A DNA stretch of 64,000 nt from Minisyncoccota bacterium (GTDB lineage: Bacteria > Patescibacteriota > Minisyncoccia > Phycocordibacterales > UBA2100), in contig JALHPE010000001.1 in NCBI GenBank assembly GCA_022842645.1, positions 7,711 to 71,710 on the forward strand, read 5' to 3'. Positions 3,578 through 62,240 of the stretch are shown here, one piece after another. The translations under genes were made by a program, and so were the position numbers. The notes beneath the pieces were generated by a model. It searched no databases, was not told where the DNA came from, and saw only the letters and a list, made by a program, of their open reading frames with translations. Numbering within the stretch: position 1 is the first letter of the stretch; each line of letters starts with the position of its first letter.

Positions 3578-3604
3578 GTTATTTTGAGGAGAGGGAGAGA
3601 TTCG
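3578..3604. repeat. Direct duplicate of the 3' end of tRNA-Ser(CGA), copy at 3751-3777; inverted partial copy at 3695-3712
   Basis: ttattttgaGGAGAGGGAGAGATTCG here versus ttatttttgcGGAGAGGGAGAGATTCG at the true tRNA 3' end. The intervening 145 nt carry perfect hairpins (aattcttgtg..cacaagaatt and gcccaacacatgtgttgggc). Confidence 0.5.
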
Positions 3605-3759
3605 GTCACAAATAATTCTTGTGCCGACGCACAAGAATTTCCGCGACCCCGACTCGGCGACCCGCGTGCTCGCGGGTACCCCGCCTCCGTCTTTCGAATC
3701 TCCCCCTCTTCCTGCAAAAATATAGTCGCCCAACACATGTGTTGGGCTCGTTATTTTTG

Positions 3760-3844
3760 CGGAGAGGGAGAGATTCGAACTCTCGAGGCCTTGCGACCTG
3801 GCGGTTTTCGAAACCGCTCGTTTCAACCACTCACGCACCTCTCC
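3760..3844 (-). tRNA. tRNA-Ser (anticodon CGA), type II with long variable arm
   Basis: Folded by hand: acceptor GGAGAGG/CCTCTCC, D-stem CGT/ACG, anticodon stem GCGGT/ACCGC with loop TTCGAAA, variable arm AGGTC-GCAA-GGCCT, T-arm GAGAG-TTCGAAT-CTCTC, discriminator G. Confidence 0.85.
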
Positions 3845-21916: not shown

Positions 21917-23713
21917 TTACTCATCTCCTCCGCGCACCACCTTCAGAAACACCTCGTGAGGGATATCAACCTTCCCGCGTGCAAGCATTTTCTTCTTGCC
22001 TTTCTTTTGCTTTTCAAGAAGCTTCATTTTACGTGTGATGTCGCCGCCGTAGAGGTACCCGGTTACGTCTTTGCGCATCGCTGACTTCCTGCGCGATGCG
22101 ACGATCTTTCCATCGCATTTTGCTTGAATTTTGAGCTCGAAGAGCTGTTTCGGAAGAAGCTTTTCGAGCCGCTCAACAAGCGCTTCGGCTTCGTGGCCAA
22201 CGCGTCGTTTTGAGACGATGCGCGCAAATGCAGGCACGAGCTCGTCGGCAACAAGAATGTCCAGTCGAACCACATCCGCACTCCTCAGTCCCAGCAACTC
22301 ATATGAGAGCGATGCAAAGCCTGAAGAGACGCTTTTTAGGCGATCAAAGAAGCCTCGCATAAGCTCGCGCAGCGGCATCTCAGCTGCGAGCTTTACCTTG
22401 CCGTCGGGAAGTGTTTCTGTCTCCCCCACTACCGCTTCATGATCGAATAGAATCTGCGAAATACCGCCGAGATAACTCGGGGGTGTAATGATATCAATTG
22501 CCGCCCATGGCTCGCGCACTGATTTAAGCGTGCCGTCATCAGGAAAACGTGCAGGATTATAAATTTCCTCCACACGCCCGTCTTGGAGTGTAATCTCGTA
22601 CACAGTTGTGGGACTTGTGACCACAAGCGGTAAATCAAATTCGCGCTTCAACCGCTCGATAACAATCTCGAGATGAAGCATCCCGAGAAATCCACACCGA
22701 AATCCTTTCCCCATGACACCAGAGGACTCTTCTTCGTACGAAAGTGAAGAATCGGAGAGGCGCAGACGCTCAAGCGCCTGGCGGAGCTGTACTAAATCGT
22801 CTTGCGACTCTGGGTACACAGACGCCCAAATAACAGGCGCTGGAGCCCTGTAACCGCCGAGCGGAGCGCCACTCATGCGCGCAGAGAGCACTGTGTCGCC
22901 CACAGAGGCAATACCCGGCTTTTTAATGCCAGTCACGATGTAGCCGATTTCCCCTTCCCTAAGCTCATCGCGCGGGGTTTCGTCGGGCGTGAGGACTCCC
23001 ACTTCAAGTGCCGTAAACGAGGCGTTTGCTGCTGCAAGCTTGAGTGAATCTCCCTTTGAAACGCGCCCGCCAAAGAGTCGACAATAAATGATGACGCCGC
23101 GATGGTCGGAATATGAAAAGTCATAAACGAGTGCCTGCATTTTCTCTCCCGAGCTTCGGGGCGGAGGAATACGCTCAACAACCGCGTTCAAGAGTTCTGT
23201 AACACCAACACCTGTCTTACCTGAAGTAAGAATCACGTCGCGCTCGTCACATCCAAGCAGCATAGTGAGTTCTGTCTTCACGTCATCAACACGTGCGTGT
23301 GGTGCGTCTATTTTATTTACTACGGGGATGATCACCCTCTTCAATTCGCGCGCCGTCGAGAGAACCGAAAGTGTCTGCGCCTCAACCCCCTGTGTGGCGT
23401 CCACGAGGAGCACAACCCCTTCAACGGCCGAGAGTGCACGTGAGACTTCGTAGGCAAAATCAACGTGGCCGGGAGTATCGATCAGATTTAGTGTGTAGTT
23501 TGTAGACTGTAGTTTGTAGTTCATCCGGACGGGAGCCATTTTAATGGTGATGCCACGCTCGCGCTCGAGATCCATACGATCCAAGACCTGTTCTTTCATG
23601 GCTCGCTTTTCGATCGTGCCGGTGAGCTCGAGCATGCGATCGGCCAGGGTGGATTTCCCGTGGTCAATGTGCGCGATTATCGAAAAGTTTCTAATGTGTG
23701 AAGACATATTCAT
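21917..23713 (-). CDS. lepA: Elongation factor 4 (LepA); likely true start at the second ATG (23707)
   Basis: IRNFSIIAHIDHGKST G1 motif, DTPGHVDF, and the LepA-specific C-terminal domain ending KKGKKKML..; 598 aa. Confidence 0.95.
   Translation of the reverse strand: MNMSSHIRNFSIIAHIDHGKSTLADRMLELTGTIEKRAMKEQVLDRMDLERERGITIKMAPVRMNYKLQSTNYTLNLIDTPGHVDFAYEVSRALSAVEGVVLLVDATQGVEAQTLSVLSTARELKRVIIPVVNKIDAPHARVDDVKTELTMLLGCDERDVILTSGKTGVGVTELLNAVVERIPPPRSSGEKMQALVYDFSYSDHRGVIIYCRLFGGRVSKGDSLKLAAANASFTALEVGVLTPDETPRDELREGEIGYIVTGIKKPGIASVGDTVLSARMSGAPLGGYRAPAPVIWASVYPESQDDLVQLRQALERLRLSDSSLSYEEESSGVMGKGFRCGFLGMLHLEIVIERLKREFDLPLVVTSPTTVYEITLQDGRVEEIYNPARFPDDGTLKSVREPWAAIDIITPPSYLGGISQILFDHEAVVGETETLPDGKVKLAAEMPLRELMRGFFDRLKSVSSGFASLSYELLGLRSADVVRLDILVADELVPAFARIVSKRRVGHEAEALVERLEKLLPKQLFELKIQAKCDGKIVASRRKSAMRKDVTGYLYGGDITRKMKLLEKQKKGKKKMLARGKVDIPHEVFLKVVRGGDE
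23488..23524 (-). repeat. Half-copy of the heptad-array element inside the lepA coding sequence (encodes MNYKLQSTNYTLN)
   Basis: In the lepA sense strand, ctacaaa ctacagt ctacaaa ctacaca ctaaat. Its first 19 nt match the right arm of copy 1 (1744-1762) exactly. In plus orientation, 24 nt (agtgtgtagtttgtagactgtagt) match the left arm of copy 3 (62156-62179) exactly. Confidence 0.6.
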
Positions 23714-30013: not shown

Positions 30014-32827
30014 CTACTGACAGGCATCGCACTGTGCGCGCTCTGCCGGATCAACGGGACACACGAACGCCTTTTTTGCCTGCACTGGTGCTTGCGCGAG
30101 CGCGGGAGCGGGAGTCGCAGGTTCTGAAACCGAAGCTTCTCCAACTGTGGCAAAACCCATGCGCGATACTTCTTCTGTGGGAGCCACCGCAAGAGCAGTA
30201 ACAGCTCCTACCGCAAGAGCAGTTGGGGCGGATGAAGGGCTCGATGCCGTAACTGGGAGTACTTCTTGCATGGCGGGTGTTATAGGAAGTGCGCCTTGGT
30301 CCGCCACAGCAGCAAAGCCTCGTGTTGCAGGTTGTGGCACCTCCGTCGAAACCGCTTCAGCCTTCACTGGAACCATTTCTGGCACCTGCACAGGACTCAT
30401 CTGGATAGGCGAAGCAACGGGCTCCTCGTTGGCAAAGACTGGCTGTGCGACCACGTTCGCGAAGCCGCGCTTGCCGGTTATTGCCATCTTATTCACAGAG
30501 GTTGTTGATTGCTCCGCAGTATGGCGTGGCTTCATGTGGAGGTAGTAAGTGGTCTTCAGTCCCTGCTTCCACGCTGCCATGTAGACGTTTTTCATTTCGT
30601 TCATGTCACGGCTTTCAAGATACATGTTGCGTGAGAGTGCCTGATCCACCCACTTCTGCGCACGTGCAGCAACCTCGATGAATGCGTAGGGCGAAGTGCT
30701 AAACGAGGTTTTGTAGATCTGCTTCAGATACGACGGAATTTCAGGAATACTAGAGATATCGCCCTGCTGTTCCACAATCTTTTCTTTCACCTCGTCCCAG
30801 ATCCCCATGTTCTTAAGATCTTTTACGAGGTTGTGGTTGATATCCATGTATTTACCGGAGATTTTGTTTCGTGAGAAGACCTGGGCGAAACGTGGGTCGA
30901 TGCCTGGCGTCGTGCCTGCAACAAGACCAATGTTTGCGTTCGGCGCAACAGCCATAAGCGTCGCGTTGCGCATGCCGCCCTTCACTTTTTCACGAAGGGC
31001 ATCCCAATTGAGCTGTTTATTCCTTGACTCACGCTTCATACCGGTCGAGATGCCACGATCTTCTTCGAGCGCTGCGATGGAATCCACGGGCACCATACCC
31101 TTTGACCAACGCGAACCTTCGAAGTGCTTGTAGACGCCGCGCTCGCGTGCAAGATTGGCACTCTCATCAATTGCCATGTAGCTCACGAATTCGAATACGC
31201 GATCAGAAAAATCTGCCGCATGTCCGCTCTCATACGCCATGCCAAGTTGTTCTAGGGCATCTGCAAAGCCCATGACACCCAGTCCAATCGCGCGATTCTC
31301 CTGATCCCCTTTGACTGCTTCTGGAATAGGGAGTGTGTTTATGTCGATGAGGTTGTCGAGCTGACGAATGGCAAGGCGCACACTCTCTTCAAGCTTGTGC
31401 CAGTTGAGCTGACGGCCCTCGATGTGCCCTGCGAGGTTGAGTGAGGCAAGGTTACAGACCGCAACACTGTCTTTGCTCTGCGGAAGACAGATCTCCGTGC
31501 AAAGGTTCGACATGTGAATGGTGCCGGTGTTGTTGTTGAGGGCACGGAGGTTGATTGGATCTTTCCACGTGAGCCATGGATGCGATGTGGATTGAAGTGC
31601 AGTGAGAATCTGGTGCCACTGCTCGGTTGCCGGCACTTTCTTCCACATGCGGAGCTCGCCTCGCTTTGCCATTTCTATATATTCGGCATAGCGCTTTGCA
31701 AATTCTTTGCCGTAGAGCTCATTCAGATCCGGCGTTTCCTTGGGATCAAACATGTACCAATCTTCCTGCTGCTCCACTCGACGCATAAAATCGTCGGAGA
31801 GGTAGACGGCGGTGTTTGCCGTGCGCATGCGAAGGTAGTCATCGCCTGCATTGTGCTTCCAGTCGATATATTCGGGAAAATCATAATGCCAGTTTTCCAT
31901 GTAGAAGCAGAGTGCTCCTTTCTTCTTGCCGCCACGCTGAACAGCGCGGATTGCAGTGTCCATAATCTTTGCGAACGGCGTGGGACCAGAAGAGACTGTG
32001 TTTGATGATTTGAGAGGAGAACCCGCGGCACGAAGCTTGGTGACAGAAACACCGATGCCACCCGATGCTTTTGATAGCTTCAAGACATCTGCCACCGATT
32101 TTGCGATGTGGTCCATGTCATCATGTACTTCAAGGAGGAAGCAGTTGGAGAGTGCGGGGCGCGGTGTGCCTGCCGCAAGATTTGTGGAGCCACCTGCGAC
32201 GTACAGGTGCTGCGACATGCGGTCGTAGAACTTCTGCGCCATTTCTGTTGGATTAGCCTCGTTGTACGCAAGACCCATCGCGATACGCATGAAGAAATAC
32301 TGTGGCGTCTCGGCAGGCTTCTGCTTCGTATTCTTCAAGGCATAGCGATCGAGAAGTGATGAGAGTCCAGCGTAGGTGAAGATCTCGTCGCGCTCGATCA
32401 TGAGAGATGCGGCAAGTGCCTCGAGGTCGTATTTTTCCGCCATGCGGGTATCGAGGAGGCCGCTCGCGATACCTTCGCGCACGTATTCGGCGAACCGCGT
32501 GCGGTACTTTGCCGCAAGTTCAGTCGGGTTGTCGTTATATTCGCCTATCACGCGACGATATACTGTCTTCAAAAGAAGACGCACAGCCACTTTGTCGTAC
32601 TCAATGTCTTCTTTAATGTTTTGCACCGCGGCGTTGATGGTCGCAATATCCATCTCTTCCGTGGTGATTCCGTCGTAGAGCGTGAGCTGCGTCTCGCTCG
32701 CGATCTGGGTCACCATCGAGATGGGGTCAGTGAGCCCTTGGCACGCTCGTTCAATCGAACGATTAATTTTGTCCGCGTTGAACTGTTCGCGCGCACCGTC
32801 GCGCTTCGTAATGGTCAGATTCACCAT
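30014..32827 (-). CDS. nrdA: Ribonucleotide reductase class I alpha subunit with an unusual roughly 190-aa low-complexity C-terminal extension
   Basis: N-terminal ATP-cone (VTKRDGAREQFNADKINRSI), catalytic core NLCTEICLPQ, and terminal redox Cys pair (CPVDPAERAQCDACQ). Confidence 0.9.
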   Translation of the reverse strand: MVNLTITKRDGAREQFNADKINRSIERACQGLTDPISMVTQIASETQLTLYDGITTEEMDIATINAAVQNIKEDIEYDKVAVRLLLKTVYRRVIGEYNDNPTELAAKYRTRFAEYVREGIASGLLDTRMAEKYDLEALAASLMIERDEIFTYAGLSSLLDRYALKNTKQKPAETPQYFFMRIAMGLAYNEANPTEMAQKFYDRMSQHLYVAGGSTNLAAGTPRPALSNCFLLEVHDDMDHIAKSVADVLKLSKASGGIGVSVTKLRAAGSPLKSSNTVSSGPTPFAKIMDTAIRAVQRGGKKKGALCFYMENWHYDFPEYIDWKHNAGDDYLRMRTANTAVYLSDDFMRRVEQQEDWYMFDPKETPDLNELYGKEFAKRYAEYIEMAKRGELRMWKKVPATEQWHQILTALQSTSHPWLTWKDPINLRALNNNTGTIHMSNLCTEICLPQSKDSVAVCNLASLNLAGHIEGRQLNWHKLEESVRLAIRQLDNLIDINTLPIPEAVKGDQENRAIGLGVMGFADALEQLGMAYESGHAADFSDRVFEFVSYMAIDESANLARERGVYKHFEGSRWSKGMVPVDSIAALEEDRGISTGMKRESRNKQLNWDALREKVKGGMRNATLMAVAPNANIGLVAGTTPGIDPRFAQVFSRNKISGKYMDINHNLVKDLKNMGIWDEVKEKIVEQQGDISSIPEIPSYLKQIYKTSFSTSPYAFIEVAARAQKWVDQALSRNMYLESRDMNEMKNVYMAAWKQGLKTTYYLHMKPRHTAEQSTTSVNKMAITGKRGFANVVAQPVFANEEPVASPIQMSPVQVPEMVPVKAEAVSTEVPQPATRGFAAVADQGALPITPAMQEVLPVTASSPSSAPTALAVGAVTALAVAPTEEVSRMGFATVGEASVSEPATPAPALAQAPVQAKKAFVCPVDPAERAQCDACQ

Positions 32828-33040
32828 AATTTTTTCCTATAAAAGTTAATAAATTCCCCGATTACTAACTACTTCCTCTCCTCTTCGCGCCATACGCCAG
32901 GGGGCAGAAAACACGCTCGTCGCGCTTGAAGCGACAAGTTTTCTACATCCCGGGCGTACGCACGCTCAGTTGACTTAAAGTAACACACGCCCTCTTTGTA
33001 GGGACTTTTTCCACAGCTGTGGATAACCCGATTTATGGCT

Positions 33041-33496
33041 TTATAGAGAGAGATTTTGAGGGAGGGTTGCGCGATCACCAATTTTAATGCGATGTGTGTC
33101 GGAAAATCCAGCGGGAACTTCGAGCACGAATCTCGCGGGTTTCGGAGGGGCAAAAGAGGTTGGGTAACTCTCGGGAGAGGCAGATTTTTCTATATGCACT
33201 ACTTCTCCCTCTTTAGAAAACCAAAGAATGTCGATCGAAATCAACATATCCTTCATCCAAAACGTATGAATGCCCTCTTCCTCAAAGACAAAGAGCATAC
33301 CTTCGTTTGATCCGAGCGATGAGACGCCACTCAAGCCCTGCGTTCGTGCGGCTGGTGAATCTGCAAGCATGACGCGCACGTCTACCCCACCAATACGGAC
33401 GACGCCGGAAGGGGTTATAACCCCTTCCGGCGTCGAAAACCACACACTGAAAGCAAGAATCGCAAAAAAACCAAGAGTAATACTCGCCCACTTCAT
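33041..33496 (-). CDS. DUF192 (COG1430) family protein with signal peptide
   Basis: Matches the DUF192 signature: GLSGV..GMLFVF...FWMKDMLISIDILWF...ARFVLEVPAGF. The start at 33496 (MKWASI) overlaps the upstream stop as TAATG. Confidence 0.75.
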   Translation of the reverse strand: MKWASITLGFFAILAFSVWFSTPEGVITPSGVVRIGGVDVRVMLADSPAARTQGLSGVSSLGSNEGMLFVFEEEGIHTFWMKDMLISIDILWFSKEGEVVHIEKSASPESYPTSFAPPKPARFVLEVPAGFSDTHRIKIGDRATLPQNLSL

Positions 33497-33906
33497 TAGG
33501 CAAAGAGTACCAGAATGAGGGCCATTACGATAAACGAAACGAGCCAGTATCCAGCGGTGATAAAGAAGTATTTCATTGGCTTCATCTCCCAGAGAACCGA
33601 GCCTAGAAGCACTGGTGCCGTAAAGCCGACCCACGACCAGATACCAAGCTCAATCGCGCCAATCCAGTCATAGACACCCCATGCAATCCCGAAATGCGCC
33701 ATGACCCATGCCGCAACGACAGCTGCGAGAAATGCGAGAAATGCCATCATCGGCATTTTTTTCTTCCCTTCTTCCATTTTGCTCATATCGAGCCCTGCGG
33801 CTTTAGCCCAAGAATCACCGAATACTTTCGGGTGATACCATGCCATTCCAAGAATGACATTTGCAATACCGGCTAGGAGAATAGGAACGAGTGTGACTTC
33901 AAACAT
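33496..33906 (-). CDS. DUF1761-like small membrane protein
   Basis: Four TM helices; N-terminal pattern ILGMAWYHPKVFGDSWAKAAGL is typical of DUF1761. Confidence 0.5.
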   Translation of the reverse strand: MFEVTLVPILLAGIANVILGMAWYHPKVFGDSWAKAAGLDMSKMEEGKKKMPMMAFLAFLAAVVAAWVMAHFGIAWGVYDWIGAIELGIWSWVGFTAPVLLGSVLWEMKPMKYFFITAGYWLVSFIVMALILVLFA

Positions 33907-34015
33907 AGTAAAAAGTAGCTAGGTGTATAAATCCCCGTTCCTCTATCGTAGCTCCCCGCGCCCCGCGCGCCAGTGGGGGCTGTGTGCAACTTCTCTCTTA
34001 CTAGCATATGAGTTG

Positions 34016-34100
34016 CGGAGGCGGTGAGATTCGAACTCACGGTACCTTGCGGCACGCCGACTTTCCAAGTCGGTGGAATAAACCACTATCCGACGCCTCC
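34016..34100 (-). tRNA. tRNA-Ser (anticodon GGA), type II
   Basis: Acceptor GGAGGCG/CGCCTCC, D-stem GGA/TCC, anticodon stem CCGAC/GTCGG with loop TTGGAAA, long variable arm, T-arm GTGAGTTCGAATCTCAC, discriminator G. Confidence 0.85.
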
Positions 34101-34138
34101 TTTTACCACAAACTACAAAGATAGCCGAAATACAGCAC

Positions 34139-34843
34139 CTAGACAACCGAAGCTTTAAATCGTCTGTCAGGCACCTTCGCTTCTTTCCACGATTCGTATA
34201 GGCCGGAAATTCTGGGATTCGATGTTCCAAAGACACGCAAATACGATTCCACTGCACGCGCACTACAAAGATAGATTCTGGTGTTTTGCGCGATTATGTG
34301 GGGTTCGATATCATTTTGACGAAAGACGTCTGCTACTTGTCGGATAAGTTCTCCTGATTCGCTAGTAAAGCAAAGTCCGATGTTTTGGTACTTGTTGCCA
34401 AGAGTCGTGTGTCGATGAATATACAAACAACCATCAGTATCCATTAAGCCACGAACGCATGTAGTTCTGTATGAAAAATTTGCAAGAACCCATGATGGAA
34501 TTCGAAGACCTTTTTCAAGTTTATTCCCACTCGACAATCCTTGGGAAATTAAAAAATCTACAACTGTCGTACTATTTAGGACAAGGACGAGCGCATTAGT
34601 ATGTTGCCGCTTGCGTGAGGTGGGACGAATACCGAAAAGATGATCACATAAATCAGAAATATACTCAGCATACTGTGCGTCTTTTTCGGCATTCATTGTG
34701 ATACTCAATTGCCAGGGATTTCCAATACCTCCATCCCCGAGCATAATGCCAAAAAACTCGGCAAGCTTAGATGACTTCTCAGGCAATCGTACAATTTTTC
34801 TGTGACTTTTTGCCGGGTAGCGTAATGTAGCTACTGAACTCAT
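34139..34843 (-). CDS. LAGLIDADG homing endonuclease (double-motif, free-standing)
   Basis: Two LAGLIDADG motifs, LAEFFGIMLGDGGI and VRGLMDTDGCLYI, about 100 aa apart; 234 aa. Confidence 0.8.
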   Translation of the reverse strand: MSSVATLRYPAKSHRKIVRLPEKSSKLAEFFGIMLGDGGIGNPWQLSITMNAEKDAQYAEYISDLCDHLFGIRPTSRKRQHTNALVLVLNSTTVVDFLISQGLSSGNKLEKGLRIPSWVLANFSYRTTCVRGLMDTDGCLYIHRHTTLGNKYQNIGLCFTSESGELIRQVADVFRQNDIEPHIIAQNTRIYLCSARAVESYLRVFGTSNPRISGLYESWKEAKVPDRRFKASVV

Positions 34844-34952
34844 AACACCATTGTAACAAGTGTTTTCGAGCTTACATTTTTTGATTTTTTATCCAGACAT
34901 GTGATATATATCAGTTAGCAGCATCCGAGCTCAAAAGAAAGGAAGTGGACCG

Positions 34953-35147
34953 ATGTCGAAAGAGTGTTTTTGGTTTGTGGCGAGTGCCTGTCTTGTGCTC
35001 ATCCTTCTACCAGGATGTTCGACTGAGGTTAGGCGGCAAAGTGATAAGGAAGAGGTGAAACCACCTCCTCCCCCAGCCCACCGGCCAACGCCTGTACTGG
35101 CACAACCGCCGTCATGTCCTGACGAACGGCGCGCATACTGCGCATGA
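34953..35147 (+). CDS. Small putative lipoprotein (64 aa) with a Pro-rich tail
   Basis: Signal peptide ending in a lipobox-like LLPGC. Confidence 0.35.
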   Translation: MSKECFWFVASACLVLILLPGCSTEVRRQSDKEEVKPPPPPAHRPTPVLAQPPSCPDERRAYCA

Positions 35148-35153
35148 AGTTCT

Positions 35154-35184
35154 TAACAGCCGCATACTCTGCGGCTGTTTTTAT
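35154..35184. terminator. Bidirectional rho-independent terminator
   Basis: acagccgcat-actc-tgcggctgt followed by TTTTAT. Confidence 0.65.
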
Positions 35185-36074
35185 ACCTGCATCTGCGACA
35201 GTGCACTGATACGCTCTTCTACAGGCGGATGTGTTGCAAAAAGCTTTGCAACAAACCGCCCCATGTCGTGCGCACCAAAAGGATTTGAAATGAAGAGATG
35301 CGCTGTTGCGTGATTGGCGCGCTCCATCGGCGCTTCGTGGGAGGAAATCTTTACGAGCGCAGAGGCGAGCGCATCTGGATAGCGCGTAAGGAGCGCGCCC
35401 GAGGCATCGGCGAGGAACTCTCGGCGGCGCGATATGGCGAGTTGAATGAGTTGCGCGGCAATCGGCGCAAGAAGAATGCCAATAAATCCAACAGCCATGA
35501 GAATGATATTTGCTCGCGCATCCCTGTCCCCCGCACCATAAAACGACGCGCGGAGAAAGAAGTCGGCGAGCATTGCAACAAAACCAGCAAGCACGACGGC
35601 AACCGTCATCACGAGAATGTCGCGGTTCCCGATGTGTGCGAGCTCGTGCGCTACCACGCCCTCAAGCTCGCTTCTGTCGAGTCGCTCTAAGAGACCTGTT
35701 GTCACCGCAACGACCGAGTGCTTCGGGTTTCTCCCTGTTGCAAAGGCGTTCGGTGCCGGATCATTCACGATGAAGACGCGCGGCTTGGGAAGCCCTGCAG
35801 TAATCGCAAGATTTTCGACAATGCGATGGAGTTCGCGGTAGGTGTTCGGATCCGCCTCGACTGCTCCCGTGGAAGACAGCGCCACTTTATCCGAAAACCA
35901 ATAGGCCGAGATATTCATGAAAAGCGAGAATGCGACCGCAACCCACAAAATCCCCGGCTGTTGTAAATACCACGCCGTCACATACCCAATAGCTACAACA
36001 AAGACGAGAAACCCGCCCATAAGGAGCCAGGTGCGACGGATGTTTGCTGCCTGATGCGTGTATAAACTAGCCAT
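35181..36074 (-). CDS. htpX: Zinc metalloprotease HtpX (M48 family)
   Basis: HEXXH seen as VVAHELAHIGNRD, four TM segments, 297 aa. Confidence 0.9.
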   Translation of the reverse strand: MASLYTHQAANIRRTWLLMGGFLVFVVAIGYVTAWYLQQPGILWVAVAFSLFMNISAYWFSDKVALSSTGAVEADPNTYRELHRIVENLAITAGLPKPRVFIVNDPAPNAFATGRNPKHSVVAVTTGLLERLDRSELEGVVAHELAHIGNRDILVMTVAVVLAGFVAMLADFFLRASFYGAGDRDARANIILMAVGFIGILLAPIAAQLIQLAISRRREFLADASGALLTRYPDALASALVKISSHEAPMERANHATAHLFISNPFGAHDMGRFVAKLFATHPPVEERISALSQMQV

Positions 36075-36115
36075 ATCTGTTAGCCTATCTTCAAAAAAAC
36101 CAAAATCAAGTGTAT

Positions 36116-36676
36116 TTAGAACTTCACTGGAACCGGCTGACGCGCGGCCTCCTCACTTTCCGCAAGCGCAAAGAATTCGCTCGGCTTGAAGCCAAATGCG
36201 GAACCGATGATGTTTGAGGGAACTTGTTCGAGCGCGTTTTTCAATTCCTGCACGACGGAATTATAAAAGCGGCGTGCGGCTTGGATTTTATTCTCCGTGT
36301 CGGAGAGCTCACGCTGAAGCTCGAGGAAGTTGGTATTTGCCTTCAAGTCTGGGTAGCTCTCTGCGACAGCAAAGAGTGATTTAAGAGCACCCGTAAGCAT
36401 GTTTTCCGCGGCGGCATGTTCTTCCACGGTGCCCGCATTCATCGCCTGTGTGCGCATCTCCGTCACTTTCGCGAGCGTCTCTTTTTCGTGCGTCGCATAA
36501 CCTTTCACCGTTTCAATAATGTTCGGGATGAGGTCGTAGCGGCGTTTGAGTTGCACATCAATATCAGCCCATGCTTCCTGCACACGATTAGTAAGCGCAA
36601 CGAGGCGGTTGTAGCCCAGAATCGCCCAGAGGACGACGGCTGCAACAACACCGAGAATTATGTATAGGATTGTCAT
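36116..36676 (-). CDS. lemA: LemA family protein
   Basis: N-terminal TM helix plus the conserved LemA region (YNRLVALTNRVQEAWADIDVQLKRRYDLIPNIIETVKGYATHEKETL). The htpX-lemA pairing is common. Confidence 0.85.
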   Translation of the reverse strand: MTILYIILGVVAAVVLWAILGYNRLVALTNRVQEAWADIDVQLKRRYDLIPNIIETVKGYATHEKETLAKVTEMRTQAMNAGTVEEHAAAENMLTGALKSLFAVAESYPDLKANTNFLELQRELSDTENKIQAARRFYNSVVQELKNALEQVPSNIIGSAFGFKPSEFFALAESEEAARQPVPVKF

Positions 36677-36701: not shown

Positions 36702-39700
36702 TTATCTCAACCCGCCCGGAGGAACCGCGCACCCGGCAGGATTTGGTTCGGCTTCGCAGAGGCATTGGATGAACGAATTGATTGGTTGTTCTGGCTCGCA
36801 GGTGCGCACGTCCTCTGGCGTAGGGTTTCCACTTTGCCCGCTGGACCCGCCCCCTCCTCCATTTCCACTGCCCGAACCGCTTCCGCCTGTGCCTACGGGC
36901 GTGCTCTGACTTCGCGCGATTTCTTCCGGCGTGAATATACGCTCCGGATCAGAATCGTCGCCACGCACACGCACCAGTGTCTCATGCAGAAGTTTATCGG
37001 TTGTATTCTTCGTGTTGCACACCAAGCCAAAACGAGTCGATTCGGTGATTGTTGGCGAACTGATAGATCCGTTCTGAGGGCCACGATGGAAGACTTTGAA
37101 GTCTGCGCTTATAACAGCGCACGTTGAGCTTCCGACATCGGTCCCGACACTCGACCACGAAAGCGTTGTTGTGGATCCAGAAGTTATGAACGAGGGATTA
37201 GCAACAATTGCACCCACGATAACCACCGGCTGCGGAGTGGATTGCGGCTCAGTCGGTGGTCGAGGAGGCTCTTCCTCCCCTCCTCCACCAAAATCAAAGA
37301 ACGCAAATAAGCCCTGGAGGAGTCCTTGCAAAACACTCATCCCACCGCGAGAGAATCCGCCCGAGCCACTGCCAGAAGAAGGAGGACTGCCGGGCACATC
37401 TCCAGAAGCAGAATCTTCAGGGGTGGAATCCCCCGGCGCACGACCATTTGTTTTTCCACTAGAACCAGAATCTGCATTGGCGCCAGGAGCACCACCTTGT
37501 CCGCCACGATCGCCGTTTGCACCCCCATCTGCAACAGATCCTACGCCGCCTCCGTCTCCTCCTGTTGCATCTTGTTGTGCCTTCTCTTCTTCTCCACTTT
37601 CACCTGGCGTAGCGGGTGCAACTCCTTGTGGCTCACCACTTTGCGATTCAGAGGGGGGCGCATCTCCAGGAGGCGTAGAAGTAAGAACACCACTATTCTG
37701 ATTTTGAATGGTCGTGTCGGGAGTAGATGGCGCTTCTGACGTAGCAGGAGTTTCTAAAGGCTCTTCTCCCCCAGGCATAATCGCATACACCCCCGCGCCA
37801 CCTAATAACATACTGACCGCCGACAAACATGAACGGAAGCCTGTACACATATCCCACGCTCTGCGTGCAACAGACGTTTGATTAGAGGGTGTATTTTGGG
37901 GCGATGCCGTGTTTACCCCTGCTCCCGAGCCGCGTGCTTGCGCCTCAGCCGTAGCCCCCCTTGCGTAATCATCAAGCGCACCTCGTGCAAGCGCGAGCAC
38001 TTGTGGATCATCTAGCTTGGCACCGTTTGCAAGTGCCCCATCAACGTCATCGAGCTTGCGTGCAGCATTGTCATACAACCCGGAAGCTGAAGTACCCTTC
38101 GTTATTACAGCCTTTTCGATCGCTACATCGCGAAGGAATTTAATCTCTGCAATCTGTGCTTCGCGCGCAGCTTGTGCGCGCGACCACTCATCAAGGCGTT
38201 TTATAAAATCATCGTTAATTGGAGCCACATCCCTACTAACTGGAGCTACAGCCTCAGGAACCACAGCGGCTGGAGGAGTGTCTGGAATGGGCGGTGGGGT
38301 TGGGGTGGTATCGCGCGGAATCGGAGGCGGCGTTTGCGGGAGCGGAGGTGGAACCGCATCAACAATCGGCGCACGTGGAAGATTTGCATTAGGCAGTGGT
38401 GACGGCGTTGTGGCTGGTACGTCTGGAAGTGCATCTCGAGCCAGGGCACCTGTGGGTAAAACGTCTCTTGTAAACCACCCACGTAACGATTGAGCTGCGT
38501 CTCCGATCGATGATCGAAGAGATGTCAAAGAGAAACCTTCCGAAACAGGCACAAGCGCATCCGCTCGATCCGGTACAAATGCACCAGCTTCTCCTAACGA
38601 ACCTTTTATTTCTTTTTCCTTTTGCCCCGGACGGAACGTGAATGGCGAAGGGGGAATGGACGGTGGAGTAGTCACTTGTGTATTTGGCGGTGGCGCAATG
38701 TCTGCAGCTACGACAGGCGCAGCAGATGGCGGGCGTGGCGTATCGCGGACAAGAGCAACAAAACTCGGTGACTCCGGAAGAGTTGGTGCAGGTGTGCCAG
38801 GCGAGCGTGGAGTTGTGGGCACAGGCACTGCCGGTGCCTCAGCCACAGCAGGAGTGTTGTCGGCAACAGTAATTACAGAAGGAGTTGGTATATCCTCCAC
38901 ATCAACTGCTCGAACAACTACATCAAAAGAACTATTCGCGATCACGGTTGGAGCAGAGATAGTATCAAAAATCGCGAGGGCAGTTACAACTTCTCCATGA
39001 GATAACGATTGGACGGTCGGGATATCTACAGCGGAGACTGTACGAACTTCCGGAATAGTAGAAACTTTTGCTAATAATGTATTTATTTCGATGACCGCAT
39101 TCTCAACTTTTGCTCCCTGAGAAGCGATTCTTGCTTTGAATTGAGCTTGGTTCGCGGCTTTGCTAAAAATATTACGTGCATAAAAGTTATCAACCTCCTG
39201 AGCCAAACTGCTCACATTTGTGCGCGCTATTTTCGCCTGCTCCAATAATCCTTCTCGAACATCACTGGGCACGAGAGGATTTTTGGCGACATTCTCTGCT
39301 GCGTCCGCTAATCTACCGACACCTGAACGCAAAGAGGGAGATGTGTTTTTTAATATCTCAAGGCCATCTAAACCTCCGATTTGCCTTGCTCGCAATAGTT
39401 CTTCCTGCATTACCTTTAAACGTCTAATACTCGGGGGTATAGCAACTTGTGCTTTTGCCAAATCTGCTTCTGCGGCAGCCACTAATTCTTTTCGAGGATT
39501 CGGTGCTATTGGCGGGTTTGTCTCAGAAACCAACATTGAAGTAGGAGAAGGGGGCGGGAGACTCTCTTCTGCTGCTCGGCGTGCACGTGCGGCAATCTCT
39601 GACAAATCGGCCAAAACAGTCGCTTGATCGGGGGAGGAACCGATGCCGGCGCGCCACACTTCGTCCATGGCAGCAAGTTGTTTACGCAAAATTTCCGTCT

Positions 39701-42700
39701 CCCCAAGTGGTAAACTTTCTCGACGAAGATCTGCAACGAGGTTCTCACGTAATACCTTCGTAGCTTGTTCTTCAGCACGACGTGCAATCTCATTCGGATC
39801 GCCTTGTATTCTACTGCGCCCGATCCCCTCTTGGTACTGCCGATTTGCAATCTCAATCGCACGCCGATTTGCTTCGACGGAGACATTTTGATTCGCAACC
39901 TCTCGAGTGGCTTCGGGACTTGGCGGTTGGTTTCCTCGAACAAAATTCCTCACGTTATTCATAAGACCTTCGATACGATTTCCTGCTGCAATGACACCCT
40001 CCGTCACACCGTATAGAATCGCATTCTGTATACCCGCACCCGAAGTCTCATTACCCACCGAATTCATAGCAGGGGTATCCCCGCTTTGAGGAACATTTGC
40101 AACAACTGTCGGGCCATCCAGAGCTTGAGGAGCATCCGCAACTACAGGTCTCGCAGCTGGTGTTGGTTCGTTTATCAATTTTGGTTCTGTGGATATCTGC
40201 GCCACATACGTCTCTGTCCTTGAAAAATCCGGACTTATAGGGCGTGTTGCGGCGATGATGGGATTATCTTGATTAACAATTGGCGTTGCCCTAACATCCA
40301 GCGGCGAAGGAACATCTGAATAGACTTGAGCAATTTGCGCTTCTACTGCTGCTTCCCTTCCTAACGCGGCCTTCATCAGACCTCCTAACCCACGATCGCC
40401 AATAGGGATTTCTGACACAACGCTCTGATCCGGCCTAAGGATAAAGGGTGATCTGCCACCATCAAGATCCTGCGCTATACGGGGAGCATCCGGAGAGACT
40501 GCGGATTCGGGCACCTGGGCAATCTGCGTACGTGGCAACTTCGCCACGGCATCGATATCTGCCTGAATAACAACATCTGCTGCCGTCATCTCTGCAATCG
40601 TAGGCTCGGTTCCCAGATCAGGGCGGCCTGCTATATTTTTTGCAAGGGCACTTTGGTATCGCTTGTATGCTTTTGTGTCTTCAAACCCAGCCTGTTTCAG
40701 TGCCGAAGCGATTGAGCGATTATATGCAAGAGAAGTTGCTACATCCGGATTCGGAGTAATTGGGTCAAGCGTGCGAGCACCGATTATCATTTTTGCCGCC
40801 TCACGTTCGCGCTGGGCAAGTTGTATTTTCGCTAGATCTTCGCTGGCTCTCGCTGGCAGACCTCCCGCCGGTGCACCCAAAGACGCTTCACGGAAGTTTG
40901 CAAACCCCGCGAGCACGTCCGCCTCACCAGTCTGGTGATTTACAATACGGATATTCGGATTCCATGCGCGAGCGGCATCAGCCATAATGAGACTGCCCAG
41001 TACCTGCCCACCATCAGGCAAATCCCCTTTTTGCATGACGGTCTCCACACCGATACCCCGGTGACCAAACTGGCGAGCATGGGCGTAGTATTCATCAAAA
41101 GGAGTGAGTATGCCTATATCCACCACTTTCTCACCGGCAATATTTGTCTGGGTTCTTCCTAGGTACGCTGACACATACACGCCTGAGCCTCTTCCGTTGT
41201 TTGCATTTGACTCAAGGATTTTGAACATATCGTATGTATTTGCACGTGTCTCGTGAAATACCAATAAGTCTCTCTGTGCAGGAGTACGGACCCTACCAAC
41301 GTTCTCACGATTAGCCCAAACGTCGTTCATATACCACAATCGAACTGTGTATGTCTCTCCATTAAATGGAATTTTTTTAACCGCAACTGAAACATCTACC
41401 TCACCTTTTCGCGCCGTCCTGACTTTCAGTGTTTGCATGGTTGCATCCGGCAATATAGGCAAACTTGATGGATTAATAGTTGCCCCCGTGCTGCACATTT
41501 TTGCGTCAGTGCAGACAGCGGTTGCAACCGCATCGTTACTCGCAGGGACAGGTGCTGTTGTATTTGTGGGCTCTGAAGTTGGGTTACTGGGAGGAACTTC
41601 GCCGTCTCCTGAGCGCACAACCGGGTTCGCGACCTCCGGAGGAGTATTTACTGCTCCCTGATTCGCATTCGGCACCTCAGCAATTGCAGTAGGCCTTGAT
41701 GTTTGAGCGTACCACTGAGCCGCTGGTTCTGAGCCGAATACTTTTGCAAGACCGTCACGTAACGCCTCATTTGTAATGGGATCCTCGATTCCATATCTTG
41801 CCAGTGCTGGATATTCTGCTTTAAAGATTCCCTTCGTTAGAGCCGCCCGAGCAGCAAGATCGTTGCGCGCAATGGGTGTAGTAAGTGTAAGTCCCCCTGT
41901 TTCTGCATGGCGCAAACGAGACAAATCATCAAAGGAACCGTTGATCACATCAGTACCAACCCACAACTTAACCACATCGTTATAAGTTTTTGCATTTACG
42001 TACGCTGGTTGGTAATCCAATTTTGCTGAAACCATAGCCGCAGCGTCTGCGTGAGAGGCAAAACATGCGTATGGAGCGTTGCAAGATATGATATTTATTT
42101 TCTCGGGCACAACCTTTGTTAAGTCAGGCTTGCCATTGACAATTGGGACATCGTTGAAAAGCTCTGGTTTGATTTTCTGTACTTCGCGCACACCTTCCCA
42201 TTTCATTCCCCCGAGATTGTTTAATTCTTTAGCAGCGGCAACATGCCTCGAACGAACGTCGACATTTCTCCATTGAGTTTGATTTCCTAAAAAACTTACC
42301 CTACTGGTATCACTACCATCGCGACCAAAAGAAAGAGTGACGGGGCTTTTCTCCCCCGTAACCACACTAGCTGACACAGAGTCTCCTGCTTGCGCAAGAC
42401 CAATCGAAGAACCTTCCGGCATAAAAAGAGAAAATGGAGGGAGCGCGGCGGGATTCGGAGTGGCTGCAAGTCCAACGATGACAGCCGCTTGCTTTAATAC
42501 ACGACCAACTGGCGTCTCGCCTATTCGAGACAAGACTGTAGGGGCGGATGGTATCAAACGATCGACTCCTGCTCCGCCTACAAGAGAATCTATCCCACTT
42601 CCCCCACTTGGAACATTTGATGGGGCATTTGAAGCGCGCATAACTGGGGGAGGTTGGATATTGCGAAGCGGAATACTCTCCACGTTATTGATTCCAGACA

Positions 42701-45700
42701 CACTTGGCACCTCGACAGCACGCCCCCTTGAAGGGATTGCCGCAGGAATCGCATCGGACACGGGCGTAATCGGCGGCTCATATAATACAAGTGCTCTACT
42801 TGGCGGAAGCGGTGCGTCTGGGCGAATACCGCTGAGTGCAGCTCTTACTTCTTGCGCATCAGGTCGCAGATCAAGCTCAGGATGGTATACACGATCCGCA
42901 AAACGTTGCGCAGCAACTGTCTCAAACTCTGAAGCGGTACCCGACCATCTTCCAGCAGTAATTTCATGGTTGAGTCCGCTAGTGACGGAGCGACCCATGC
43001 GATCCGCAAGAACCGCAGCATCAGTACTTAAACCTGCAGTTGGAGGACGAAATACCCCTGAAGCAATGGCGTAATCGTCGCGCGCAACGTCGAGAGCGAA
43101 ATTACCCAAACCCCTTCCTATGGCTCCCGCTTGTTTAAAAGTGACAATACCAAGAGGTCCGACGTATTGTGTCGAATCAACAATAAAAGCTCCAAGTGCA
43201 GAACGGGGGCTGCGCGCGAGTCCAGCGATTTGCACATCCGTGACCGGAGTAACTCCAAATATAGACGAGACGTTAGAAGCCCCATCCCACAGACTTTTCA
43301 TGACACCTCCACCAAAAAGTTTCGGGTAATTCCCCTCACGCCACGCATTTTGTACAACTTCGCCCCAATAATCTGAACGCTCCTGCAGCCACTGAGGAGG
43401 AGCTTCAGTACCTGTAATGGTATTAATTCTTTGTTGCAGAGAAGCATCGGTGACTTTGCCCTGAAGGATTTGATCAATCCGAGCGTTTGTGAGGGTCAGA
43501 TTACCCTGCGGATCGTACCATCCAGGACCTTCTGTGCCGGCGATGCCTTCCAACGTGAATGGAGTAAGCGCTGATTCAAGCATGACTCTTCCCAAACTCA
43601 TGTCCCCACGCTGATACGCATCAATCATTTCAGAGAAACTCAAATTGCTCTGGAGAGCATCTTGTTTCTGCTGAATGAGTTGCGGTAGTATTTCTCGCAT
43701 TGCAAGTTCCTCGCGCGTCATGGTCGCCGGGTCACGCTTCATAAACGCTACATAATCCGACGCACGCGGGTCGTTCGTTAGAAATCCTAGAGTATTACGG
43801 CTCGTATTAATATCGCCCTCAACGTCTGAAAGTTGTGCTCCTAGCGAAGCAATCTCCTGACGTCTATCGTAAAGAAGTCCTGTATCTCTAGGAGAAATCG
43901 CGACATCATTCAGGGCATCTATTTCAGAGCGCAACTGAAGTGCGCGCAGATTTGCTTTATCAAGCGCGCTCTGAGCGCGATACCGCTCGTCTAAGACACT
44001 TTGCACGGGATCGCTGATGCGCTCCTGATATTCCCGATTAACTTCCGCAAAACGAGCACGAGCTGCTTCAAGGTTATTTACAGCCTCAAATCGCTCTTTC
44101 TGCAACGTATCAAGTGGCGCTGCAACAGAGCTAAAGTTCGCCAGGGCTTCTTGTTGTACCCGTGCTGACGCATTTGCTTCCGCAATCGCAACGCTCCGCT
44201 CTTGGAATAATGCACCCCTCTTTGCATCAACCGATGAAAACGTCTTCGTCAAACGATCATTATCGGTATTGAATGCTTCGCGAAGTCCGTTATGTTCATT
44301 CGCTAGACTTTGATACCGTTGAAAATCTGCTTGGCTTAATTTTTTTCCATTTGCCTCCGCTTTTGCGTCCAGTGCGGAGAGCTCTGTGCGTATGGCATCC
44401 ATCCGCGCGATTCGCGCCTCTTGTTCGGGATACGTACGAACCCGCGCGATCACATCCTCCGTTTTGCTGGTCATTGCCCCCACTGTGTTTGTCTCGACTG
44501 TTGTTTTAAACGTGCGTTCCGCCATGACGCATCCGTTTGTTTGCGCACACAATGACTCTTCTGCGGCATTCTGCGCTGCAATCGCTGTATTTTTCTCCTG
44601 AATCGCGGCCTGACTACGAGCTTCTGCCTGCGCGGCATCTCGCACAACCGCCTCGCGCGCCGCCCTCATTCTTAAAACCTCCTCTTCACTCCGCCCCCCT
44701 GAAATAGATCCGTTTTGCGAAAGATTTAATTGCGTATTCTCACTATTTTTTAGAACGTCTTGCAAACGCCTCTCCGCCTGAACGACATCTTGCGCCGCTT
44801 CGATGCGATCGCGCTCGATGCGTAAGAACGTTTTGTCTGTTTCGCCAGTTTGAGTGCCTTTTTCTCCTGCAAATGTATCAATACCAACTCGAGATCCTTC
44901 GGACACCCCGGTGCTATACCCTGGCAAACCCTGTTTTCTAAATGCATCGTCGCTAGGTCCGCTTGGGGAGTTCTTAAGACCCGCCTGTTCATTAGCCGCG
45001 ATTGTGGGGTTGATCTGGTTTAGGGGATCCTGCACACCACTCGGTCCCCCGGCGTTCTGCGCAAGATACCGAAGACTCTCCTGTCGACTCGCTTCTCTCT
45101 CTACTCCGTCCAGCGCCGCAATCGCTTGGGCACGATCAGATAACTGAAGCCCCAGCGAGTCACCAAGTTTTGTAAACCATGCACGATTGTCTGGTTGTTC
45201 TTCCACCGCCGCCTTGAGCGCAAGCGCCTCGCCTGAGGATATGAGTTCCCCTCGCGCCTGTTTTTCGAGTACATATTCAGCAACTCCCTTCTGAAATTGC
45301 TCCGGCGTCACACCTTCGAATTGTTTTATAACATCTTCTATTGAAGCAAGGGAATCTAGGTTCGATTCTTCTGGGCGACTTCCCATGCTGTCGAGAATTG
45401 CTTTGCTTGTTACCAACTCCCCACTATTCACATCAACTATTTCCGCTTCTCCGAATGGGCTCTCTGTAAATTCGGTTGTGTTTAATGTGGGGTCAACGGA
45501 ACCGGTGGCTAATGTTTTCAACCCGGCCCACGCCTCTGCCGCAGTTGCTTTCGCGGTTTGCCACATTCCATTCAAGCCATCCGCAAGAGTTGAAACTGTT
45601 GACGGCCGAGATGTCGGAAGAGCAAAAGGATCAGGAGATCCTGTATTGCTGAAAGTTCCTGTCGGGCGAACAAGATCACCCAACCCCTGATAAAACGAAC

Positions 45701-62149: not shown

Positions 62150-62240
62150 GTCTGTAGTGTGTAGTTTGTAGACTGTAGTCGAGAAATTCCTCGCAACGCA
62201 CATACTACAAACTACAATCTACTTTCTACAAACTATTCAT
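62150..62240. repeat. Heptad-array palindromic element, copy 3 (gtctgtag tgtgtag tttgtag actgtag, 25-nt spacer, ctacaaa ctacaat ctacttt ctacaaa ctattcat) ending at the metK ATG
   Basis: Read directly; 24-nt exact match to the lepA copy. Confidence 0.6.

Follow-up and report, generated by a model that had tools for sequence, protein, structure and literature searches.

A free-standing gene for a homing endonuclease of the LAGLIDADG superfamily lies directly 5' of a tRNA-Ser(GGA) gene in a Minisyncoccota bacterium, in the 64,000-nucleotide stretch of contig JALHPE010000001.1 (positions 7,711 to 71,710) that was analysed here and is referred to as the window. The pair belongs to a widespread family that probably spreads by cutting the resident tRNA-Ser gene and replacing it. 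The endonuclease open reading frame (ORF) occupies 34139-34843 on the minus strand, begins with ATG and encodes 234 residues of the monomeric two-domain type. Its two LAGLIDADG motifs, both encoded on the minus strand, are LAEFFGIMLGDGGIG (residues 27-41, 34721-34765; core FFGIMLGDGGI), with the catalytic Asp37 at 34733-34735, and CVRGLMDTDGCL (residues 129-140, 34424-34459; core VRGLMDTDGCL), with the catalytic Asp137 at 34433-34435. The Pfam model LAGLIDADG_3 matches the ORF above its cut-off (E=2.6e-5, 24.8 bits versus 22.5 bits), and a weak match to LAGLIDADG_WhiA stays below the cut-off (E=0.0028). With two motifs, a significant Pfam match and neither an intron nor an intein host, the description of a free-standing double-motif gene that an earlier sequence-only reading had given holds. 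NCBIfam contains no model dedicated to the family and returned weak matches to intein-containing proteins only, restricted to their endonuclease part.

The active site is preserved throughout the family. Asp37 is an aspartate in all 82 family members taken from genome loci and in 119 of the 120 sequences of our alignment A1, Asp137 in 81/82 and 120/120, respectively; the active-site lysine K108 is invariant (82/82), and Q45 is retained in 78 of the 82. An AlphaFold2 model of the window protein (predicted local distance difference test, pLDDT, of 91.2) consists of two repeats of a helix and four strands, that is, tandem alpha-beta-beta-alpha-beta-beta-alpha domains that form a DNA-binding saddle. 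In a Foldseek comparison its best matches in the PDB were I-Tsp061I (2dch; E=2.5e-12, template modelling scores 0.67/0.76), the endonuclease domain of the TliVMA intein, I-AniI and I-DmoI, and I-OnuI and PI-SceI were matched as well. By its modelled fold the ORF is a monomeric double-motif LAGLIDADG homing endonuclease gene whose product is predicted to cleave DNA. An N-terminal KSHRK motif (34796-34810, minus strand) is invariant in the short subfamily described below and possibly provides an additional nucleic-acid contact; its residues S13, H14, R15 and K16 are invariant in alignment A1 and variable in the long subfamily. Ratios of nonsynonymous to synonymous substitution of 0.10-0.25 in unsaturated pairs indicate purifying selection on the endonuclease.

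The gene appears to carry its own promoter, a putative extended -10 box (TGTTACAAT, 34850-34858, minus strand) that ends 6 nt 5' of the ATG and would give a nearly leaderless mRNA. A consensus promoter scan, which demands a -35 box, did not flag it; in most relatives a TGnTATAAT box lies 7-12 nt 5' of the start codon. The partner tRNA gene, a tRNA-Ser(GGA) with the D-arm variant A' (GGATAGTGGTTTATTCC), was located on the minus strand by ARAGORN at 34015-34100 and by the Rfam tRNA model at 34016-34100 (53.6 bits). The stop codon of the ORF ends at 34139 and the 5' end of the tRNA is at 34100, so that exactly 38 nt (34101-34138) separate the two; the spacing and tRNA identity given by the sequence-only reading are confirmed.

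Relatives of the window ORF occur in at least 543 GTDB species in a scan of one genome per species, and a profile search of 1.84 billion cluster representatives recovered 450 clusters (50% identity) at E<=1e-30, mostly of the long form. The general expectation of the sequence-only reading that free-standing LAGLIDADG enzymes are rare in bacteria thus fails for this family. Hundreds of homologues have 219-256 residues and 52-62% identity, and those with names come from Patescibacteria. We ran ARAGORN and tblastn on 86 loci (L001-L086), the genome loci among those studied being the best 80 of the at least 543. A tRNA-Ser gene follows the ORF directly and on the same strand in 81/81 loci that extend past the ORF; the five exceptions among the 86 are contigs that end there. 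The hosts of these 81 loci are Patescibacteria, Omnitrophota and Nitrospira, and since the upstream genes differ among loci, the tRNA is the sole constant partner. The association with the tRNA that had been noticed in the window is therefore not accidental.

Two subfamilies can be distinguished. The short one (about 225 residues, 46-62% identity), to which the window copy belongs, is always followed by tRNA-Ser(GGA) and occurs in Paceibacteria and in Kaiser-, Taylor-, Vogel-, Falkow-, Uhr-, Woese-, Curtiss- and Peribacteria. Members of the long one (33-42% identity; 258-262 or 325-390 residues) mostly precede tRNA-Ser(GCT), sometimes the TGA or GGA isoacceptor, and are also found in Omnitrophota, in Nitrospira (including chromosome CP058931.1), and in metagenome-assembled genomes (MAGs) assigned to Planctomycetia and Woesearchaeota; taxon labels of MAGs are unreliable. 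Two of the three long-subfamily members tested have weak, sub-threshold helix-turn-helix (HTH) matches near the N-terminus. Protein clades correspond to the anticodon (GGA, GCT or TGA) in a tree built by neighbour joining, the method behind all trees used here. One homologue is labelled WhiA by JGI. No paper in the literature library that we searched connects LAGLIDADG genes with tRNA-Ser. At the long-form locus L086 (2750-3745) the gene lies between a complete tRNA-Ser(GCT) and a tRNA that ARAGORN calls Ser(ACT), perhaps a copy changed by mutation, since such an anticodon is unusual.

In most short-form loci the ORF and the tRNA overlap, the stop codon lying at one of a few fixed positions inside the tRNA (+14/15 or +23/24). 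The C-terminal W-R codons of relatives coincide with the first tRNA bases (T|GG AGx). The conserved codons S-V-Y-x-K-W at the 3' end of the ORF read TGnTAYAAn, an extended -10-like sequence 7-12 nt before tRNA +1 (3640-3655 in locus L010). With this placement transcription would begin at or just before the mature tRNA 5' end, and the dual coding may keep the tRNA expressed independently of the ORF.

Many relatives share the upstream genes LemA and HtpX with the window, and we therefore gathered further loci by HtpX similarity. HtpX (peptidase M48; 35181-36074, minus strand) is the ancestral upstream neighbour of tRNA-Ser(GGA) and belongs to the flank, outside the element. Among 80 metagenome loci picked by HtpX similarity alone (58-77% identity), 57 have a tRNA-Ser(GGA) within 3.5 kb, and only four of these 57 carry an intact ORF (L127, L141, L151 and L165, the last of the long form). 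One more (L147) retains a 5'-truncated ORF remnant that still runs into the tRNA. In at least nine loci, among them the window's closest HtpX relatives such as L090, L091 and L094, HtpX is followed by tRNA-Ser(GGA) after only 13-58 nt; ORFs in larger gaps between the two encode membrane, GGDEF and other host proteins, none of which matches the family profile. On the HtpX tree the ORF-bearing loci are scattered among empty ones, the window being sister to the empty L090, and the divergence of the endonuclease correlates only weakly with that of HtpX (Mantel r=0.31, p=0.02). The base composition of the ORF is foreign as well: its GC content is 42.6%, and 36% at third codon positions compared with 58-59% in the HtpX, LemA and ribonucleotide reductase genes, and a low-GC island of about 34100-34950 covers the ORF and its promoter. 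A constant insertion address, sporadic presence, a decayed copy and foreign composition thus occur together, and this pattern of gain, decay and loss, which is the one expected for an active homing endonuclease gene, indicates that the gene is mobile and not core. As a separate observation, four metagenome contigs (L100, L138, L156 and L162) break off inside a variant-A tRNA-Ser(GGA) just past its D arm; this may be chance, or assembly may have stopped where filled and empty alleles were mixed.

Probable traces of the insertion itself are found upstream of the start codon, where many short-form loci contain a 5' piece of a tRNA-Ser(GGA) gene, typically GGAGGCGTCGCATAGTGGTCTAGTGC. Significant fragments were detected by blastn-short in 11 independent loci (the L003 group, L015, L018, L019, L022, L025, L035, L038, L039, L040 and L141), 40-60 nt 5' of the start codon, with identities of 24/24, 27/27 and 28/28 to tRNAs from empty sites in other genomes. 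A search with the 15-nt D-arm core allowing up to three mismatches found upstream matches in L009, L010, L013 and L017 too; at up to two mismatches not a single unexplained match to this core occurred in 884 kb. The fragments run from tRNA position 1 to positions 20-31, mostly ending at the junction of D arm and anticodon stem (24-31). All but one are of variant A (tRNA-Ser(GGA) gene sequence GGAGGCGTCGCATAGTGGTCTAGTGCGCACGCTTGGAAAG...) and stop at position 22-31; the 20-nt fragment of L038 matches its own variant-B tRNA. Each fragment is followed on its 3' side by an A/T-rich stretch, an inverted copy of the D arm and then the extended -10 box TGnTATAAT. The D-arm part of the stump (TGGTCTAGTG) and the inverted copy (CACTAGACCA), which abuts the promoter, form a hairpin about 20-75 nt before the start codon in L003 (3942-3990), L007, L009, L012, L017, L019, L022, L030, L048 and L141, with compensatory changes in L010/L022, L030 and L039. 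This conserved hairpin might shield the endonuclease gene from a tRNA promoter that has lost its own gene, or it might be an operator-like copy of the half-site.

The full tRNA downstream of the ORF in fragment-bearing loci, which scores 47-54 bits with the Rfam tRNA model, has a different D arm and mostly also a different acceptor stem. In most of these loci the fragment could not form a complete acceptor stem with the 3' acceptor strand of the tRNA downstream (1-3 mismatches over 7 positions), and the downstream tRNA is therefore a different gene copy and not the other half of a split gene. In addition, a decayed variant-B tRNA lies beneath the end of the ORF in L039 (significant; borderline in L042), and shorter tRNA leftovers are present at the ORF end in L006 and L026. 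Two loci without an endonuclease gene show a related arrangement: L087 (1958-2145) and L098 (2470-2649) each contain a variant-A 5' fragment (positions 1-29/32) and, further downstream, a full tRNA-Ser(GGA), with a spacer of 66-74 nt between the two. The spacer has a hairpin of its own with TTTTGTTSAA arms, and L087 is the closest HtpX relative of the window; the arrangement may have been left behind by an element since lost, or it may stem from an independent small insertion.

The D arms of the tRNAs differ between loci with and without the ORF. Class A (TC-GCATAGYGGTCTAGTGC) accounts for 31 of 54 loci without the ORF and for a single one of 55 ORF-linked tRNAs (L151). Class A' (TC-GGATAGYGGTTTATTCC) is present at four loci without the ORF (L089, L099, L124 and L131) and at five with it, including the window. 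Class B (TG-...GAGYGG...) comprises 16 loci without the ORF and most ORF-linked tRNAs. Compared with the common variant A (GCATAGTGGTCTAGTGC), variant A' has a compensated swap of C11-G24 to G11-C24 and two to three further changes. Within a host clade dominated by variant A, which was picked after the tree was seen, the tRNA is non-A in 9 of 10 ORF-bearing loci and in 4 of 27 without the ORF (Fisher p=5e-5). The displaced fragment beside the element is a feature of the relatives' loci and not of the window, and a functional tRNA that differs from the displaced or naive allele is found in both, the window's being of variant A'.

Taken together, we consider it probable that these free-standing endonuclease genes at the 5' side of tRNA-Ser spread by cutting and replacing the resident tRNA gene. 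The enzyme would cut a variant-A tRNA-Ser(GGA) gene near the junction of D arm and anticodon stem, at about position 24-31. Repair would then copy the donor, made up of a 5' tRNA piece, the small hairpin, the promoter with its extended -10 box, the endonuclease gene and an entire tRNA-Ser(GGA) that has another D arm. In this copying the short 5' piece of the cut tRNA would provide homology on the left, and homology on the right would come from the conserved 3' part of the gene. Because both arms would lie within the tRNA, unrelated flanks would be no obstacle to movement of the cassette between genomes. The recipient would be left with the 5' stump of its old tRNA gene, the endonuclease gene and a working, presumably resistant tRNA, and splicing would not be needed. 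The ORF usually ends in the new tRNA, and the two would be inherited as one unit; in some lineages the gene would later be lost or decay, as in the usual homing cycle. We infer the cut and the resistance of variants A' and B from the distribution of sequences, and comparison among loci suggests the steps after cutting.

Several observations weigh against this reading. In L151 the ORF stands 5' of an apparently sensitive variant-A tRNA, and L039 and the L003 group combine a variant-A stump with a near-A full tRNA, which requires extra steps. A recognizable fragment exists in only about one third of the short-subfamily loci and in none of the long-subfamily (GCT/TGA) loci, so that the replacement mechanism may not cover the whole family. 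We found no polymorphism for presence and absence, as all contigs with an HtpX identical to that of the window also carry the ORF. Intact copies make up nearly all of the sample, and purifying selection acts on them, a pattern that would suit a host function as well. The choice of the best 80 of at least 543 genome loci biases the sample in favour of such copies. For the Fisher test the clade was, as mentioned, chosen with the tree in view.

The window itself lacks such traces of replacement upstream and in the tail of the ORF. The 420 nt 5' of the ORF contain no tRNA fragment (alignment score 7 against the variant-A fragment, shuffle mean 7.6), and a target-like site was absent from the whole window when searched for. 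By protein alignment the ancestral junction of ORF and tRNA corresponds to the codon of W219 (34187-34189). It is followed by a tail of 15 lineage-specific residues (codons including W219, 34140-34189, minus strand), of which residues 224-234 have a pLDDT below 60 in the AlphaFold2 model, and 88 nt lie between the junction and the present tRNA. No relic of a tRNA was found in this tail: the local alignment score was 20 versus 18.6 for shuffles, 16 of 60 shuffles being at least as good, and a global alignment of the 88-nt segment to the tRNA was no better than for shuffles or random genomic 88-mers. The place of the relatives' tRNA 5' fragment is taken by a 64-residue lipoprotein-like ORF (34953-35147, plus strand) between HtpX and the endonuclease gene. 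Of the right hairpin arm only faint similarity persists, at 34863-34876. An intact ORF, active site and promoter-like box, a missing stump, an 88-nt gap and a variant-A' tRNA together suggest that the window copy is an older insertion, since rearranged, whose partner tRNA is an allele of the escape type.

Alternatively, the endonuclease gene could home to the leader or promoter region 5' of tRNA-Ser and neither destroy nor replace the tRNA, the fragments and D-arm differences then being products of sloppy repair or ordinary tRNA evolution. RNase P removes the 5' leaders of tRNAs, and for this reason such an insertion would be harmless. The long subfamily with its tight adjacency of ORF and tRNA and no displaced fragments, the unchanged variant-A tRNA faced by the L151 ORF, and the window without a fragment would all agree with homing of this kind. 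However, upstream flanks vary between hosts, so that a 20-bp recognition site located there could not be kept across phyla; the tRNA is the sole constant sequence. Moreover, the fragments end uniformly at tRNA positions 24-31 and, L038 excepted, derive from variant A, and the linked tRNA is non-A in nine of the ten cases within the host clade, neither of which is explained by homing without replacement. We therefore regard homing to the leader as unlikely.

A second alternative, less likely again, is a LAGLIDADG protein domesticated by the host for a function tied to tRNA-Ser, for example as a regulator or maturation factor whose expression is coupled to that of the tRNA, and inherited vertically with repeated loss. 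LAGLIDADG proteins have been recruited before, as WhiA and as maturases, and both are among the structural matches of the window protein (ranks 5 and 21). Purifying selection, the intactness of almost all sampled copies, an arrangement kept over several phyla and the sub-threshold HTH matches in some long forms would suit such a role. Yet WhiA and pure maturases typically lose the catalytic acidic residues, whereas in this family 81-82 of 82 copies still have both aspartates and the lysine of the active site. The gene is also missing from most close relatives, which retain the tRNA locus, and it is represented by a truncated remnant in L147. Further points that disagree with domestication are the base composition foreign to the host, the stumps of disrupted tRNA genes that adjoin the ORF, and the weak co-divergence with the host marker. 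A WhiA-type regulator in particular does not fit a 234-residue protein that retains its aspartates and has no C-terminal HTH, encoded by a gene that most close relatives lack.

The sequence-only reading had considered a degenerate tRNA intron and proposed a covariance-model search for its core. At E<=10 over 32800-36200, Rfam returned the tRNA and chance-level matches only, with zero group I or group II introns and no P3-P9 core around the ORF, and ten related loci at the gathering threshold gave only tRNA and tmRNA. Bacterial group I tRNA introns sit in the anticodon loop. A remnant of an intron-encoded endonuclease, namely a group I or other tRNA intron minus its ribozyme core, would account for the adjacency of ORF and tRNA, for an archaeal intron-encoded enzyme as the closest solved structure and for the tRNA 5' fragments upstream of the ORF in relatives, but it is very improbable given these null searches, a downstream tRNA that is complete on its own, fragments that stop at about 24-31, outside the anticodon loop, and acceptor strands that mismatch at 1-3 of 7 positions in most loci. 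Two other mobile contexts were discarded. An intein-associated endonuclease is at odds with the gene's own start codon 6 nt after a promoter-like box and with the lack of a Hint domain in Pfam. The insert is also unlike an integrase-borne tRNA island, as it measures about 0.75-0.85 kb, contains a single LAGLIDADG ORF and duplicates the 5' end of the tRNA in relatives.

The nearest precedent in principle for the proposed cutting and replacing of the tRNA is provided by the fungal mitochondrial mORFs, in which an endonuclease ORF in atp6, atp9, cox2 and nad3 of Glomus is accompanied by a foreign copy of the displaced C-terminal segment (PMC3630166). An atp6 mORF of Allomyces is credited there to Paquin et al. 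1994 (as cited in PMC3630166). As in the mORFs, the ORF would insert into a gene without an intron or intein and bring a foreign copy, the native segment stays as a fragment, and the two copies differ. Unlike in the mORFs, the host gene here is a tRNA gene, the 5' end is displaced and the replacement appears to be a whole tRNA. The hosts are bacteria, mainly Patescibacteria, and where a mORF may be in phase with its host gene, the ORF here enters the tRNA.

Free-standing homing genes of phages offer a second parallel. SegF is said, from the work of Belle et al. in 2002, to home without an intron. As with SegB and SegF, a free-standing gene here adjoins a locus that would be cut in genomes lacking it, and an adjacent resistant allele would be co-converted. 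SegB of phage T4, which performs intronless homing in a tRNA gene cluster (PMC2330249), acts in a tRNA gene region like this family. The two phage enzymes are of the GIY-YIG type and operate during co-infection, with no gene stump and no overlap of ORF and tRNA, whereas the genes of this family reside in chromosomes, encode LAGLIDADG enzymes and accompany a single tRNA identity (Ser). In candidate phyla radiation (CPR) bacteria, LAGLIDADG endonucleases have been described in 16S and 23S rRNA insertions, often group I introns, with no mention of tRNA (PMC11270868). They share with this family the superfamily, the host phylum and a conserved RNA gene as target; in contrast to them, the genes described here are free-standing, and Rfam finds no intron. 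The window protein also shares the monomeric two-domain fold, with one LAGLIDADG helix per domain, with I-Tsp061I, I-DmoI and intein-associated domains (PDB 2dch, 2vs7, 7qsu). Its identity to these is only 15-20%, they reside in archaeal rRNA introns or in inteins, and the invariant N-terminal KSHRK motif sets it apart from them. WhiA, a domesticated LAGLIDADG transcription factor with a C-terminal HTH and without catalytic acidic residues, is similar in having two LAGLIDADG-like domains and appears at rank 21 of the structural matches; this family differs in keeping both aspartates and, in the short form, in having no HTH.

The usual view is that a homing endonuclease gene can enter an essential, conserved gene without fatal effect on the host only as part of a self-splicing intron or an intein. 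This family suggests a third route in bacteria, which is to invade a tRNA gene and bring a spare copy. If so, it would explain a gene that is widespread in hundreds of species of Patescibacteria and has gone unannotated, it would make a selfish element a force in tRNA sequence evolution through D-arm variants and compensated escape alleles, and it would add compact (about 225 residues) monomeric meganucleases with a definable natural target. It would also be a natural counterpart to engineered cleave-and-rescue drives. ClvR, attributed to Oberhofer, Ivy and Hay in 2019, is reportedly an engineered Cas9 gene drive in animals that does not home into the cut site. Similar to ClvR, the nuclease would destroy the resident copy of an essential gene and the element would carry a recoded, uncleavable rescue copy; unlike ClvR, the element occupies the presumed site of cutting, and the tRNA is only taken to be essential. 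We tentatively put forward the broader possibility of a natural bacterial cleave-and-rescue system, in which a LAGLIDADG enzyme destroys a resident, presumably single-copy essential tRNA-Ser allele and the element supplies an uncleavable tRNA-Ser. Such a cassette would cross Patescibacteria, Omnitrophota, Nitrospira and possibly archaea and would drive the turnover of D arms, including compensated escape alleles such as that of the window. On the practical side, assembled contigs are prone to break here, and annotation of tRNAs can be misled by the stumps.

The sequence-only reading had further proposed that a 13-nt direct repeat flanks the endonuclease gene and links it to a family of heptad repeats. 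The 13-mer (ACTACAAAGATAG) is indeed present exactly at 34112-34124, in the spacer between ORF and tRNA (34101-34138, minus strand), and at 34262-34274. The second copy lies inside the ORF on the minus strand, where it encodes residues I190-S194 (IYLCS) and a separate function is not indicated. Relatives do not share the repeat, and most of them lack a spacer altogether; the positions given are correct, and a role as flanks is not supported. A border of the element or a target-site duplication was likewise rejected, since the segment between the copies is the normal 3' end of the ORF and the repeat is not conserved. The window has five direct repeats of at least 13 nt within 200 nt, compared with a mean of 0.32 in Markov simulations, 20% of which give at least one; the repeat is real but only weakly beyond chance. 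The spacer copy includes a -10-like TATCTT (34118-34123), 18-23 nt 5' of tRNA +1. Its position resembles that of TATAAY boxes 12-20 nt before tRNA +1 at empty sites, and it may thus be part of the tRNA promoter; no functional tie to the copy in the ORF is apparent.

The heptad CTACAAA occurs 17 times in the window versus 6.1 expected, and this enrichment stems from arrays at 1690-1764, 23492-23519 and 62151-62232. The arrays are inverted, with three to four tandem heptads on each side, (NNTGTAG)n facing (CTACANN)n. Neither the endonuclease locus nor its relatives contain such an array, the only heptads at the locus being one per 13-mer copy. The suggested link between endonuclease and heptads was therefore dropped, the arrays being unrelated to the locus as far as seen.

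Some further features of the window and of related contigs are worth recording. The 64-residue ORF between HtpX and the endonuclease gene encodes a signal peptide and a lipobox-like LLPGC, is followed by a 10-bp hairpin at 35155-35179, and is confined to this lineage. Directly upstream of LemA/HtpX lies an ORF of 3287 residues (36702-46565, minus strand) with no Pfam match on record, which is also present in L167. A phage vector was considered and rejected, as only one contig of the viral collections carries a 40% relative and the other matches are distant LAGLIDADG proteins without a tRNA. This contig, L170 (IMG/VR UViG_3300025715_000112), has the ORF at 423-1146 followed by tRNA-Ser(GGA); either the cassette resides in a phage here, or the contig is bacterial and was wrongly classified as viral. 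Finally, the last approximately 17 nt (GAATCTCTCCCTCTCC...) of a tRNA-Ser(CGA) gene at 3759-3844 (minus strand) are found at 3761-3777 and repeated at 3588-3604, 173 nt downstream; a recombinase gene is not evident nearby, and the repeat resembles a trace left by a small element that inserted at the 3' end of the tRNA.

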